Position numbers and translations under genes: made by a program
Notes under the pieces: generated by a model
Database searches by the model: none
The model's input: only the letters and a program-made list of their open reading frames with translations
What the model was told of the DNA's origin: nothing
Origin: an uncultured Anaerolineae bacterium
GTDB taxonomy: Bacteria > Chloroflexota > Anaerolineae > JACIWP01
Direction: 5' to 3'
DNA: 64,000 nucleotides
Assembly (NCBI GenBank): GCA_938049385.1
Contig: CALIBQ010000025.1
Location: 427 to 64,426, forward strand
Part shown: piece by piece, positions 37,496 to 59,393 of the stretch
How positions within the stretch are numbered: the first letter of the stretch is position 1
Layout of the letters: each line of letters starts with the position of its first letter

Positions 37496-39010
37496 CTAGC
37501 GCTCATCCGGCACCAGGCCGCCGACGCGCCGCATATGCTCCCGCCACCAGCCGGCCGCCTCGCACAGCGGCCCGACCCACGGCCGGCGCGCCCGCGCCAT
37601 CTCGACGATCTCCCAGAAGAGCGTACCATAGCCCGGCAAATCCGCCTCATCAAAAACAGCATTGTGCCAGAGCAGGGTGAAACAGCCGCCCACGCCGGCG
37701 ACATGCTCCAGCAGATATTCCGCCGCACGCCGCGCCTCCTCTGCCGAAAGGCCCCGATAGGCGTACAGCGAGGCATCCATCAGGGTCAGCGGGATTTCCA
37801 CGAACGGATAGGGCCGGCGCCGGCGAAAAGAGTAGGGGAAAAAGGGGAAGGAGAAGCCGGCGCGGCTCCCCTCGTGCTCCGCAAAGCCCAGCGAGGAATC
37901 GTAGGCGAAGCCCAGCGCGGCATAGGTCTCCCATGACGCGGGTACGGCGAAGCGCAGGAAATGCTGGCGCTGGCCGGCGGCCGGCCCGACGATCTGCTCC
38001 AGCATGCGCCGCTCCCGCGCCAGGCGCTCCGGCTCCTCCAGGGTGCGGAAGCTCCCGTGCAGTGCAATCTCATGGCCCAGCGCGGTAGCGCGCCGTGCGA
38101 TCTCCGCCGGCCGGCCGCCCGGCCGCATGCGGTAGCCGCCGTCCTGCGGATGGGCATGGTCGGCCAGGAAGAAGTACGCGGCGCGGATGCCGGCCTCCCG
38201 CTCACGCTCTGCCAGCTCTACCACGTTGTCGTGCGGGTCGGGCCTCTGCCGAATGCCGCGCCAGGTCGCCTTCAGCCGCCGCAGGGCGCCGGCCGGCCCA
38301 CCCCTCCGCCAGGCCAGCCGCAGGTATCCCAGCTCCCCCAGGATGCGCCGCGGCCGCCACTTGCGCAGGGAATCAATGTCATGGGTAACGCAGAAGGCGA
38401 AGGGCGCACCGCCGGGCCAGACGGGCCGGCGCGGCAGGCGTCCGCCGGCCAATGCAGCCAGCACGTCCCGCAGAAGGAGCATATACGCATCCACCACGTG
38501 CATATCCGCGGCACAGCCGGCGTACCAGGAGGAGGCGTAGCGGAAGCGGCCCCACGCGTCGCGGCCGCCTGCGCCGTACTCCTCCCATCGGCTGAGCACC
38601 CAGAACGCCGAGGCGAGCAGGTCCGCCGGCAGGACCAGATGCTGTTCCCGGCGCGCCTGGTCCAGCCAGGCCTCGGCATCCCATTCCGCCGGCCCGCCGA
38701 AGGGGAGCGGCCAGCACCGGCCGGCATGGGTGATATAGGCAGGAGGGGGCAGAGCGCCGGCGCCGGGCCGGCGCAGGATGTCGGGCGCGGCCGGGTCGGC
38801 CTGGATGACCAGCGTGCCGGCCGGCAGTGCGTCAGGGGGCGGCGCGGGAAGATAGACGATGCTGGCCGGCGGCTCGCCGGCGGGGGGCCATTTGTCGGCC
38901 CATTGATGGGGGATGCCGGCGGCGCACAGCAGGGCATCCAGCGCCCAGCGGATTTCGGGGGCGATGGGATGGTCGGCGGGGATATACAGCGTTACAGCGT
39001 CGGCCGGCAT
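37496..39010 (-). CDS. Two-domain protein with C-terminal polysaccharide deacetylase (NodB/CE4-like) region
   Basis: FAFCVTHDIDS...AAYFFLADHA...GHEIALHGSF are CE4-like metal-binding motif positions. Length is 504 aa. Confidence 0.5.
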   Translation of the reverse strand: MPADAVTLYIPADHPIAPEIRWALDALLCAAGIPHQWADKWPPAGEPPASIVYLPAPPPDALPAGTLVIQADPAAPDILRRPGAGALPPPAYITHAGRCWPLPFGGPAEWDAEAWLDQARREQHLVLPADLLASAFWVLSRWEEYGAGGRDAWGRFRYASSWYAGCAADMHVVDAYMLLLRDVLAALAGGRLPRRPVWPGGAPFAFCVTHDIDSLRKWRPRRILGELGYLRLAWRRGGPAGALRRLKATWRGIRQRPDPHDNVVELAEREREAGIRAAYFFLADHAHPQDGGYRMRPGGRPAEIARRATALGHEIALHGSFRTLEEPERLARERRMLEQIVGPAAGQRQHFLRFAVPASWETYAALGFAYDSSLGFAEHEGSRAGFSFPFFPYSFRRRRPYPFVEIPLTLMDASLYAYRGLSAEEARRAAEYLLEHVAGVGGCFTLLWHNAVFDEADLPGYGTLFWEIVEMARARRPWVGPLCEAAGWWREHMRRVGGLVPDER

Positions 39011-39025
39011 ATTGACTGCGGCTCC

Positions 39026-57734: not shown

Positions 57735-57806
57735 TTCACTTCCGCATCACAGCGCTTTCCCACCGGCTCCCTGTCCGCGTGTCCCTGCGGCAGGGAGCCG
57801 ACGCGT

Positions 57807-59393
57807 TCAGCACCCCTCTTCCTTGAAGCGCGCCAGGGCGGAGGTAACGGCTTCGCCGGCCGCCTCCGCCCACCAGGCGAACCAGCGCCGGTGGGATTCG
57901 TCAAAGGGCCGGCGCATGAAACTTCGAACTGCCTCCGCCACACCCAGCAGTTGGTCCTGGTACTGCACCGGCACGATGACGGCGGAGCGGCGCAGGTCGG
58001 ATACCGGCCAGCTCTCTTCCAGATACGTCTCCAGGATATCCCCGGGCAGGAGAAGGGTCTGCCGCTGGTCGGCGGCGAAACCGTATACCCCTTCATAGCG
58101 CTTGACCTGCCGCGGGGGCGCCGGCCCGCGGCCGTACACGGCCTGCAGTGCCAGCGATCCGTCTGGTTGGGGAACGAAGAAAGAACCACCGTCGGCGCCG
58201 ACCATGTTCACCATCTGGCGCAGGAGAGTTGGATATAGGTCCTTCGGGCCGCGCACCCTGCGCAGTGCAAAGGCGATGAGCCGGCGCAGATGGATGTGCG
58301 TCAGAAGCTGTTCGCAGGTGTCCAGCGTGCGTTCCCATGGGAAAAGCTCTGCCTTGCGCCGGCCCAGCTCCCGGTAGCGCCGGCGCAGGTCCGGGTTATC
58401 CCGCAGGGTCTCGAGAATCCGGCGCAGGGCCTGCGGCTGGCCGGCGGGATACAGGAACCCCACCTGTTCGGCCAGCCCGCGCACTTCCTGCGCAGTGTCA
58501 GGCGCGACCAGCAGACAGCCGGCCGCGAGGGCCTCCAGCGCCAGGTTGGAGATACAGCATCCTGCCCCCTCTGCCGGCCAGATCAATACCTGCCCGCGGC
58601 GCAGATGCGCTCGCACTTCCTCCCGCCCTGCGACATAATGCACCTGCAGGTTGGGGACTGCAGGCGCATCCAGGCTTTGCGGAGATGCCCCATCACCGGC
58701 CGGCAGTAAGATATGGCCGATGATGCCGGACGTATCCTGGAGCGCCTGGGCCACCCCTGTCATTTCCGCTGGGCCGCAGTGTCCCGGGAAGATGACATGC
58801 ATCACATCGCTCTCCTGCGGCGGAAAGGGGAAATGGTCCAGCTCAACGCCCCAGGGCACATGCGCCAGCTTCTCTGCTGGAATGTAGGGGCGCAGGAATT
58901 CATACTCGCTGACGGTGTGAGCCAGCACCATCGCCAAGTCTGCCAGCCGGCGGGTATACCGCTCGTCCGGGCCGATGTTCAAGGCGCCGTAATAGCTCAA
59001 TACCGTCCGGGAGCGCGTCTCGAAGAGGAGGTATCCCAACCCCAGCAGTTCCCGGTAATCCCGGTTGGTGAGCAGGCCGGCGTGGATGTGAATGATGTCG
59101 TAGTTGGCCAGGCTGGCACGGCTGGCCGGCCAGCGCGCCCAGCGCTTCAGGCCGCGAGGCAGGCGGTCAGGGGAAATGACCTGCACGAAGTGGCTGCGTG
59201 CCTGCAGGCCCTGCGCCAGCCGGCATACTTGCTCCTCGATAAACGGCGCGCCGGCCCCACGCGCCAGGGAAACCTCCAATACCCGCAGGCCTGGCGCCGC
59301 CTCCTCGAGGATGACATCCTGCACCTGCCGGCTCACGGGAGGAAGCAGCGGCCACCCATCATCACGTGAGCGTAATGTTTCCGACAAATTCAC
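57807..59393 (-). CDS. GT-B (GT4-like) glycosyltransferase domain fused to a C-terminal GAF domain
   Basis: The central VHYVAGREEVRAHLRRGQVLIWPAEGAGCCISNLALEALAAGCLLVAP is a GT4 donor-binding motif. The C-terminal about 150 aa (LLRQMVNMVGADGGSFFVPQPDGSLALQAVYGRG...AVIVPVQYQDQLLGVAE) is GAF-like. Confidence 0.55.
   Translation of the reverse strand: MNLSETLRSRDDGWPLLPPVSRQVQDVILEEAAPGLRVLEVSLARGAGAPFIEEQVCRLAQGLQARSHFVQVISPDRLPRGLKRWARWPASRASLANYDIIHIHAGLLTNRDYRELLGLGYLLFETRSRTVLSYYGALNIGPDERYTRRLADLAMVLAHTVSEYEFLRPYIPAEKLAHVPWGVELDHFPFPPQESDVMHVIFPGHCGPAEMTGVAQALQDTSGIIGHILLPAGDGASPQSLDAPAVPNLQVHYVAGREEVRAHLRRGQVLIWPAEGAGCCISNLALEALAAGCLLVAPDTAQEVRGLAEQVGFLYPAGQPQALRRILETLRDNPDLRRRYRELGRRKAELFPWERTLDTCEQLLTHIHLRRLIAFALRRVRGPKDLYPTLLRQMVNMVGADGGSFFVPQPDGSLALQAVYGRGPAPPRQVKRYEGVYGFAADQRQTLLLPGDILETYLEESWPVSDLRRSAVIVPVQYQDQLLGVAEAVRSFMRRPFDESHRRWFAWWAEAAGEAVTSALARFKEEGC

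Follow-up and report, generated by a model that had tools for sequence, protein, structure and literature searches.

We analysed a 64,000-nucleotide stretch of DNA from an uncultured Anaerolineae bacterium of the phylum Chloroflexota (contig CALIBQ010000025.1; the window, below, is this whole stretch) and in it a 22-kb gene cluster at positions 37496-59393. The cluster is a real, conserved unit for a surface or secreted polysaccharide made by the ordinary Wzx/Wzy route. One of its features is less ordinary: it probably encodes enzymes that strip the acetyl group from amino sugars and put amino acids there instead.

Gene content and conservation of the cluster

A Wzx/Wzy-type polysaccharide cluster had been proposed for this interval in an original prediction made from the sequence. 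All 17 genes lie where that prediction put them, as open reading frames (ORFs) with high third-position GC in a window of about 65% GC. The core genes score above curated cut-offs, except for the polymerase role of G10, which we infer. At family level the proposed identities also hold: PglC-like, PglD-like, three proteins of glycosyltransferase family 4 (GT4), Wzy, Wzx, Wzz, GNAT, GT4-GAF, the FemAB-like paralogs, a deacetylase-fold pair and a glycosidase-like pair. From G17 down to G1 the genes are as follows (aa, amino acids; TM, transmembrane; CE4, carbohydrate esterase family 4; GH, glycoside hydrolase; AF2, AlphaFold2).

57807..59393, minus strand: G17, GT4-like glycosyltransferase with a C-terminal GAF domain, 528 aa, separate transcription unit (Glyco_trans_1_4, GAF_2, GAF)
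56508..57734, plus strand: G16, secreted paralog of G2, 408 aa, with signal peptide; the only plus-strand gene (40% identity to G2)
54916..56400 (probable start 56355), minus strand: G15, Wzz-type polysaccharide co-polymerase (PCP) (Wzz, TM helices)
53362..54906, minus strand: G14, Wzx-type flippase, 514 aa, multi-TM (Polysacc_synt_3, Polysacc_synt)
52624..53235, minus strand: G13, small GNAT acyltransferase, about 203 aa (Acetyltransf_1)
51614..52627, minus strand: G12, FemAB-like (Acetyltransf_6) paralog 1, 337 aa (PF13480)
50574..51617, minus strand: G11, FemAB-like (Acetyltransf_6) paralog 2, 347 aa (PF13480)
49187..50593, minus strand: G10, Wzy_C membrane protein, presumed Wzy polymerase (Wzy_C)
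48203..49180, minus strand: G9, predicted cytoplasmic CE4-fold deacetylase of a WabN-like family (the 'VTVDTE' protein), 325 aa (AF2 model, hhalign)
47023..48201, minus strand: G8, GT4 glycosyltransferase (Glycos_transf_1, Glyco_trans_4_4)
45921..47033, minus strand: G7, GT4 glycosyltransferase, 370 aa (Glycos_transf_1)
44756..45934, minus strand: G6, GT4 glycosyltransferase, 392 aa (Glyco_trans_1_4)
44049..44765, minus strand: G5, short PglC-type polyprenyl-phosphate phosphoglycosyl transferase, 238 aa (Bac_transf, TIGR03025)
43384..44052, minus strand: G4, NeuD/PglD-family left-handed beta-helix N-acetyltransferase (TIGR03570, PglD_N, Hexapep)
40222..43338, minus strand: G3, 1038-aa protein with an N-terminal TM anchor and degenerate xGDxVxV repeats (TM and motif)
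39026..40210, minus strand: G2, predicted lipoprotein or secreted protein, clan GH-A (beta/alpha)8 barrel with a C-terminal beta-sandwich, glycosidase-like (AF2 model, profile)
37496..39010, minus strand: G1, DUF7033 and a VimE-like deacetylase domain, predicted cytoplasmic, 504 aa, last gene of the operon (DUF7033, NF053580)

The 15 genes from G15 to G1 (56400 to 37496) are co-directional on the minus strand. From one gene to the next the distance is -14 to +45 bp, with a single exception of 126 bp, and starts and stops overlap at seven of the junctions. Judged by these junctions, G15-G1 is a tightly packed, translationally coupled operon. G16 is divergent from G15 and convergent with G17, and the strand layout alone therefore implies at least three transcription units, namely G17, plus-strand G16 and the block from G15 to G1.

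The whole order from G17 to G1 was found again in four related Anaerolineae contigs (L003, L006, L007 and L010), with protein identities of 40-92% overall that go down to 40-52%. A single rearrangement was seen: in the gene table of L007 a 404-aa gene stands before a 1046-aa gene, the reverse of the G3-G2 order in the window. Co-directional genes with tight junctions, in an order kept in four contigs, show that the arrangement is not due to chance. A genome scan with a narrow G12-family alignment located a close copy in one GTDB species representative, the Anaerolineae metagenome-assembled genome (MAG) RSWS7, and the named relatives of the cluster proteins are likewise entered as 'MAG: Anaerolineae bacterium'. 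We found no literature on a comparable Anaerolineae cluster and no Rfam family across 36-60 kb.

Three starts were revised by comparison. Relatives of G13 have gene lengths of 203-206 aa, which puts its start probably at 53235 (203 aa), and gene lengths of relatives likewise give 56355 as the probable start of G15. The start of G2 is 40210, from the source's own 394-aa gene call on the same contig (P0126).

Genes for polysaccharide assembly

G5 carries the initiating-transferase domain Bac_transf (PF02397, 237 bits) and passes TIGR03025 (301.6 bits, cut-off 295.55); its best PDB matches are PglC (148 bits) and WbaP (139 bits). The start of G4 overlaps the stop of G5 by 4 bp. G4 scores 187.9 bits against TIGR03570 (NeuD/PglB/VioB; cut-off 160.8) and also matches PglD_N and Hexapep. 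In the PDB it matches PerB (105.6 bits), the acetyltransferase domain of Neisseria PglB (102.1), VioB (84.9) and C. jejuni PglD (55). The first three acetylate nucleotide-linked 4-amino-4,6-dideoxy sugars. Since the closest solved relatives of G4 act on sugars of this type, G4 probably does likewise, on a precursor made by genes beyond the window. The bacillosamine-like sugar proposed earlier for the reducing end is plausible, but G4 scores about equally against PerB, the Neisseria PglB domain and VioB, and G5 about equally against PglC and WbaP. Among the window ORFs scanned with Pfam, Polysacc_synt_2, Epimerase and DegT_DnrJ_EryC1 gave no match, hence there is no PglF/PglE-type gene there; the absence of a 4,6-dehydratase, a DegT-type aminotransferase and an exosortase, as originally described, is borne out in the same set of ORFs. 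Nor did we find a UDP-sugar dehydrogenase or aminotransferase (WbpA/B/E/D) in the window.

Three GT4 genes follow. G6 matches Glyco_trans_1_4 (136 bits) and G7 Glycos_transf_1 (146.9 bits), and the two are 31% identical. TIGR03088 matches both, in G7 as the best NCBIfam model, at 196.7 bits for G6 and 180 bits for G7 against a cut-off of 409. G8 matches Glycos_transf_1 (72.8 bits) and Glyco_trans_4_4 (61.4 bits); its best NCBIfam model is MshA (72 bits, below cut-off) and its second TIGR04063 (70 bits, cut-off 442).

For export, the multi-TM protein G14 passes Polysacc_synt_3 (PF13440, 50.5 bits, cut-off 23) and Polysacc_synt (PF01943, 37.5 bits, cut-off 28.2), and it reaches 127 bits against HfsF, below cut-off. 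G15 just passes Wzz (PF02706, 27.3 bits against 25.5) and matches TIGR01006 at 76.5 bits, below cut-off. It has TM helices at residues 24-42 and 456-474 around a long coiled-coil loop, with a Pro-rich PPAKPVRPDP ahead of the second helix; no kinase domain was found in it.

G10 is the only Wzy_C gene of the cluster (58 bits, cut-off 31.7) and has about nine hydrophobic segments. We presume from its sequence that it is the Wzy polymerase; this activity is assigned to it because Wzz is present. The Wzy_C domain is also common to O-oligosaccharyltransferases, and the only NCBIfam match of G10 is TfpM. G10 might accordingly be a PglL/TfpM-type O-oligosaccharyltransferase, and the cluster a system for protein O-glycosylation or an S-layer glycan that loads its product onto a surface protein, for which G3 is the obvious candidate. 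The retention of G3 within the operon fits such a role, and the adjoining PglC-like and PglD-like genes recall the pgl systems of Neisseria and Campylobacter. Nevertheless, the TfpM match reaches 25 bits against a cut-off of 600 and spans just the generic Wzy_C core, and the conserved Wzz/PCP argues for polymerisation. Moreover, polymerising S-layer glycan systems require both a polymerase and a transferase, whereas only one Wzy_C gene is present, and no known glycosylation sequon is apparent in G3. We consider protein O-glycosylation quite unlikely, and in what follows we treat the cluster as a polymerising Wzx/Wzy system.

G17, transcribed apart from the operon, has a GT4 domain that is weak but above threshold (Glyco_trans_1_4, 29.9 bits) and a C-terminal GAF domain (GAF_2, 28.7 bits; GAF, 26.7 bits), the latter suggesting that a small-molecule ligand controls the protein. 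Synteny of G17 extends to L006, L007 and L010, with 40-75% identity.

A multi-TM protein with a methyl-accepting chemotaxis protein (MCP) signalling domain is encoded 53 bp upstream of G17, at 59447-60769 on the minus strand. It accompanies G17 in the two closest relatives, L006 and L010, where it is 82-83% identical, whereas L007, which is more distant, lacks this synteny. Possibly the protein partners G17 in regulation.

Two deacetylase-fold proteins

G9 had no Pfam, NCBIfam or PDB sequence match and no signal peptide. Its family is large: one search returned more than 1500 homologues, nearly all unnamed and lacking a Pfam or NCBIfam model. An AF2 model built from 37 family members (predicted local distance difference test, pLDDT, 93.3) is a CE4-type (beta/alpha)7 barrel with a conserved Asp/His site, and it resembles ArnD, a deformylase of lipid-linked sugar. 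Six residues are invariant in the family (D8, E10, D12, H75, H77 and H272), and we read these metal-site-like residues as counterparts of the CE4 Asp/His motifs.

The annotated relatives of G9 ('WalW protein' or 'polysaccharide deacetylase family protein') lie beside waaQ in the waa clusters for the lipopolysaccharide (LPS) core of Klebsiella, Enterobacter and Proteus. G9 aligns with this enterobacterial deacetylase over 97% of its length at 34-35% identity in tblastn (E 1e-46 to 1e-48), and in hhalign with a probability of 100% (E 8e-62). The enterobacterial member has no NCBIfam match either. In the waa cluster of Edwardsiella the same position is occupied by wabN (PMC5485987), and WabN is described as a deacetylase of LPS-GlcNAc that follows the GlcNAc transferase WabH in putting GlcN into the core (PMC8552709). 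From the full-length homology and the position of wabN we therefore place G9 as a WabN-family homologue, the enterobacterial protein being taken as WabN by gene position and annotation. The original prediction had assigned G9 to TIGR03006, a PEP-CTERM-associated family, but no match to that model appeared at E <= 0.01; the protein belongs instead with the waa-cluster deacetylases.

In other organisms members of the G9 family occur within Wzx/Wzy-type loci, and G9 itself sits 1 bp upstream of the GT4 gene G8. G8 has no detectable similarity to the enterobacterial waa glycosyltransferases beside the deacetylase gene and is not WabH-like. Family members go by different names in different sources ('WalW protein', 'deacetylase', 'hypothetical protein') and were also seen at L011 and L012. 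We considered a fixed pairing of WabN-like deacetylases with a partner and rejected it in two forms: with a G12-like transferase, because the neighbour in L001 is an unrelated GNAT, and with a G8-like GT4, because the neighbouring GT4 proteins in L004 and L005 are not G8-like.

G1 closes the operon. Described earlier as a CE4-like deacetylase, it keeps that identity in part: it has a VimE-like domain, but no PF01522 match, and reaches 15.5 bits against TIGR03006 where the cut-off is 276.2. It matches DUF7033 at 47.5 bits, contains the motifs THDID and HEIALH, lacks a signal peptide and is kept in L003. Its best curated match is NF053580 (101.1 bits, E 5e-29, model positions 80-425 of 431, cut-off 440), a model named VimE, 'UDP-2,3-diacetamido-2,3-dideoxy-glucuronate deacetylase'. 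By these scores G1 is a distant VimE homologue and not an equivalog. Direct PDB sequence searches with G1, G2, G3, G9, G12 and G13 gave nothing significant.

FemAB-like paralogs and a GNAT protein

G11 and G12 both match PF13480 (47 and 33 bits). They are 45% identical, which agrees with their description as paralogs, as the 40% identity of G2 with the plus-strand G16 does for that pair, and the start of G11 overlaps the stop of G12 by 4 bp. An exhaustive HMMER search gave 1325 representative clusters for the G12 family. Next to G12 stands G13 (Acetyltransf_1, 27.3 bits), and L009 carries the Wzx-GNAT-FemAB-like trio too, at identities of 40-54%.

In P0164, an 868-aa distant relative of G12, two FemAB-like modules (FemAB and Acetyltransf_6) are naturally fused. 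By analogy, this hints that the tandem paralogs G11 and G12 may cooperate.

The two genes had been thought to belong to TIGR03019, the FemAB family of PEP-CTERM loci. This assignment fails: where the cut-off is 260.35, G12 reaches 32.1 bits and G11 15.3. The same holds beyond the window. While 43 of 50 sampled G12 relatives worldwide match TIGR03019 weakly, none comes near the threshold (best E 1.5e-16), and no other polysaccharide-related curated family matched among these 50. G11 and G12 thus fall in a large unnamed sister family and are not the XrtA-associated equivalog.

These results bear on the earlier suggestion that the cluster is a divergent member of the PEP-CTERM/exosortase (XrtA) exopolysaccharide (EPS) loci, with the exosortase and its cargo encoded elsewhere. 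Models associated with XrtA are indeed the best, or among the few, curated matches of several genes: TIGR03088 for G6 and G7, TIGR04063 as second match of G8, TIGR03019 for G11 and G12, and TIGR03006 as second match of G1. Veith et al. also tie VimA-like and deacetylase genes to exosortase loci. However, every one of these scores is far below its cut-off (197 and 180 against 409, 70 against 442, 32 and 15 against 260, 15.5 against 276), and membership in such loci falls with them. An exosortase, an AsnB-like amidotransferase, a tyrosine kinase and an outer-membrane exporter are absent among the scanned window ORFs and the gene tables of the syntenic loci, and no inspected window protein has a C-terminal tail of PEP motif, TM helix and basic residues. 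We regard this explanation as extremely unlikely.

The evidence for what G11 and G12 transfer comes from a profile of their family searched against the PDB. All four significant matches are aminoacyl-tRNA-dependent transferases: two entries named 'aminoacyl-tRNA-dependent peptide synthase' (E 3.6e-14 and 1e-12), FemX of Staphylococcus aureus (1.3e-12) and FemX of Weissella (1e-4). A simpler chemistry within the same Wzx/Wzy route would have the FemAB-like paralogs and the GNAT act as acyl-CoA-dependent N- or O-acyltransferases for acetyl or another short acyl group, giving a product without amino acids that is in part free of N-acetyl groups and acylated in another way. In Pfam, G11 and G12 fall in Acetyltransf_6, a GNAT-clan family, VimA was long annotated as an acetyl-CoA transferase, and the unrelated GNAT beside the G9-family gene in L001 shows that the partner of a WabN-like deacetylase is not fixed. 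Against this stand the exclusively aminoacyl-tRNA-dependent PDB matches and the complementation with VimA of Tannerella forsythia, which changed the amino acid incorporated (PMC7468200). Plain acylation seems to us unlikely, although it deserves serious thought. Amino-acid or acyl decoration of de-N-acetylated sugars, as first put forward, is supported both by precedent (VimE/VimA, PMC7468200; WabH/WabN, PMC8552709) and by these profile matches.

Secreted glycosidase-like proteins and a repeat protein

G2 and G16 form a small family, for which only nine homologues were found, the named ones being Anaerolineae MAG proteins. G16 has no Pfam or NCBIfam match and keeps its position on the plus strand in L006, L007 and L010. 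In G2 the N-terminal hydrophobic segment ends in LWAC, with a lipobox-like Cys, and is followed by a Pro/Thr linker, as in a lipoprotein signal.

The AF2 model of G2 (pLDDT 84.6) is a (beta/alpha)8 barrel whose best structural matches are GH164, GH42 and GH140. In a family profile (E 4e-5) the invariant WYLPEEP aligns to the catalytic WSIANEP of GH2 beta-glucuronidases. WYLPEEP comes after the strand at 124-128 in the model, which is the place of the acid/base Glu of an NEP-type motif following strand 4. After the strand at 215-218, where the strand-7 nucleophile is expected, the family keeps P220, Q221, F223 and D224 invariant, none of them a Glu. As modelled, G2 and G16 have the clan GH-A glycosidase fold, and we treat them as predicted enzymes only.

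G3 has a single N-terminal TM helix (residues 5-23) and no significant Pfam, NCBIfam or PDB sequence match. It had been called a giant repeat protein. The repetition is present as a recurring xGDxVxV motif in about 11 copies, but BLAST does not detect the repeats. In L003, L006 and L010 the gene keeps its place within the cluster, with 79-87% identity.

G3 also figures in a more far-reaching idea. Chloroflexota might have in this cluster a counterpart to the 'linking sugar' system of Bacteroidota. The cluster's two pairs of deacetylase and Fem-type transferase would then install N-aminoacyl amino sugars in the polymer, whose free alpha-amino groups would accept covalent, sortase-like attachment of surface proteins, for example G3. 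We hold this to be very unlikely; if true, it would extend Vim-type tethering of proteins to glycans to a lineage without a type IX secretion system (T9SS) or an exosortase.

A proposed pathway

The reading that we favour, and think reasonably probable, is a Wzx/Wzy cluster that builds a heteropolysaccharide with a repeat unit of about 4-5 sugars, in which deacetylation is followed by amino-acid loading and the polymer is trimmed outside the membrane. The assembly roles of G5, the GT4 proteins, G14 and G15 are established at family level and that of G10 is presumed; the tailoring steps we infer.

G5 would start the repeat unit on polyprenyl phosphate, and G6, G7, G8 and possibly G17 would extend it. 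G14 (Wzx) would then flip the unit over the membrane, G10 (Wzy_C) would polymerise it and G15 (PCP/Wzz) would set the chain length. In the cytoplasm, the CE4-fold proteins G9 (WabN-like) and G1 (VimE-like) may remove N-acetyl groups from a sugar of the lipid-linked intermediate or from a nucleotide sugar. The Fem-type proteins G11 and G12 would load the freed amines, most likely with amino acids via aminoacyl-tRNA, and the GNAT G13 and the NeuD/PglD-type G4 would add further N-acyl groups. G4 would work on a 4-amino-4,6-dideoxy sugar whose dehydratase and aminotransferase are encoded elsewhere, while G13 may N-acetylate the added residue afterwards. Outside the membrane, the GH-A-fold lipoprotein G2 and the secreted G16 could trim or release the polymer, like the PslG-type hydrolases of other EPS systems.

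We therefore envisage that each repeat unit passes twice through 'de-N-acetylate, then aminoacylate or re-acylate', because two deacetylases match two Fem paralogs and a GNAT in one operon, because there is precedent, and because of the PDB matches. As to the precedent, the published proposal for Porphyromonas gingivalis and T. forsythia has VimE take the N-acetyl group off C-2 of the Wbp product, after which VimA would attach Ser or Gly (PMC7468200, PMC13086638). When the T. forsythia VimA was swapped in, a different amino acid was incorporated, and VimA itself matches TIGR03019 in conserved-domain searches (PMC7468200). Glycine-bearing GlcN and GlcNAc (GlcpNGly and GlcpNAcGly) are present in the Edwardsiella core (PMC5485987).

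Several points weigh against this pathway. The VimE, WabN, PglC, PglD and Fem assignments, as the sequence comparisons stand, are far below equivalog thresholds or at 23-35% identity. Wzy_C alone does not separate a polymerase from a ligase or an O-oligosaccharyltransferase. The window lacks genes for the synthesis of a 4-amino or 2,3-diamino sugar. The Gln and Asp at the nucleophile position mean that G2 and G16 might bind glycan and not cleave it. Finally, the host is represented by a MAG only.

Flanking genes and other features of the window

Neither flank of the cluster has to do with making polysaccharides. The side below G1 carries a CRISPR mini-array, greA, lysS, genes for a GH57 protein and a response regulator, recA, recX and the gene for RNase Y. 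The side above G17 encodes the protein with the MCP signalling domain, a peptidase of family M20 and an S8 protease with CBM96. This protease, toward the window end (62314-63858, minus strand), is a subtilase that combines Pro/Thr-rich linkers with a CBM96/DNRLRE domain at its C-terminus; L006 has it in synteny, as a full protein of 1040 aa.

In the mini-array (37070-37418) a 37-nt repeat, GTCGTAATGCCCTTGCGGGCATTCGTTGTTTTCAGAG (minus strand), is present in four perfect copies and one that is degenerate, with spacers of 40-43 nt. Hairpins downstream of G1 that looked terminator-like turned out to be these CRISPR repeats. On the side opposite the degenerate repeat, a perfect TTGACA-16-TATAAT sigma-70-type promoter (36805-36832, plus strand) likely marks the CRISPR leader, judging by its sequence. 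The same repeat occurs on 23 metagenome contigs (L013-L035) in arrays of up to 55 copies. No cas genes were found in the window or in two scanned flanks, and two of the spacers had no exact match in viral contigs.

Two further glycosylation sets lie elsewhere in the window: GT2 (163-936) with PMT_2 (1003-2496), and PMT_2 (14577-16904) with GT4 (16956-18287) and GT2 (18318-19040). By their domains both look like pairs of a lipid-linked sugar donor and a GT-C transferase, and their sequences are unrelated to the cluster. An 852-aa fusion of a major facilitator superfamily (MFS) transporter with a monogalactosyldiacylglycerol (MGDG)-synthase/GT28-like glycosyltransferase is encoded at 21690-24248 on the plus strand. 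At 2507-5178 on the minus strand, two ORFs, one for a radical SAM/SPASM protein (2507-3859) and one for a B12-binding radical SAM protein (3517-5178), share about 340 bp in their present calls.

Significance

Because Wzx/Wzy loci are found everywhere, the cluster taken as a whole comes as no surprise, and each of its modules has a known relative (Wzx/Wzy, PglC/PglD, WabN, VimE/VimA, PslG-like). What is newer is their combination, the clade-restricted accessory proteins and the unmodelled families of G9 and G11/G12. With a WabN-like and a VimE-like deacetylase, two Fem-type transferases and a GNAT in a single translationally coupled operon, the cluster offers a compact test case for 'de-N-acetylate, then aminoacylate', a scheme that has so far been inferred genetically for VimE/VimA only.

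The G9 family (more than 1500 proteins) lacks a curated model despite including the enterobacterial LPS-core deacetylase, and the G11/G12 family (about 1300 representative clusters) stands beside the XrtA-associated FemAB family. If established, the functions of these families would annotate many polysaccharide loci and inform on the poorly known cell surface of Anaerolineae.

Comparison with known systems

The cluster resembles the pgl systems of Campylobacter and Neisseria in its short monotopic PglC-type transferase, translationally coupled to an acetyltransferase of the PglD/NeuD family. Neisseria PglB is a fusion of PglC-type and PglD-type domains, which the coupling of G5 and G4 mirrors. 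It differs in that equivalents of PglE and PglF are not in the window, while Wzz and a presumed polymerase are present. Moreover, the similarity of G4 to GDP-perosamine and dTDP-viosamine acetyltransferases is about as high, and so is that of G5 to the catalytic domain of WbaP.

With the XrtA/PEP-CTERM EPS loci the cluster has in common an initiating transferase, GT4 proteins, a FemAB-like gene, a deacetylase, a chain-length determinant and a Wzy-like gene, but an exosortase, PEP-CTERM cargo, a tyrosine kinase, an AsnB-like enzyme and an outer-membrane exporter are not among the scanned genes. Compared with EPS hydrolases such as PslG of P. aeruginosa, G2 and G16 belong to a small unmodelled family whose named members are from Anaerolineae MAGs, and they come as two paralogs, one of them divergently transcribed.

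G9 shares the N-terminal DTE...HxH...HSSE motifs of the WabH/WabN system (PMC8552709, PMC5485987) and adjoins a GT4 gene. Here, however, the setting is a Wzx/Wzy repeat-unit operon and not the LPS core, and G8 has no similarity to the enterobacterial glycosyltransferases.

The Wbp/Vim system of P. gingivalis and T. forsythia (PMC7468200, PMC13086638) shares with the cluster a divergent CE4 deacetylase, a FemAB/TIGR03019-like transferase and GT4 proteins (VimE, VimA and VimF), as well as a Wzy-dependent glycan. The likeness has its bounds: G1 reaches 101 bits where the VimE cut-off is 440, G11 and G12 are likened to VimA via PF13480 and a weak TIGR03019 match only, and the genes WbpA/B/E/D are not in the window. 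The host is a member of the Chloroflexota, and no T9SS gene is in the window. To our knowledge, anionic lipopolysaccharide (A-LPS) is not to be expected in such a host. The cluster also has two Fem-like paralogs, and its two deacetylases come from different families. The proposed logic is common to both systems, namely that the N-acetyl group comes off and then an amino acid goes on.

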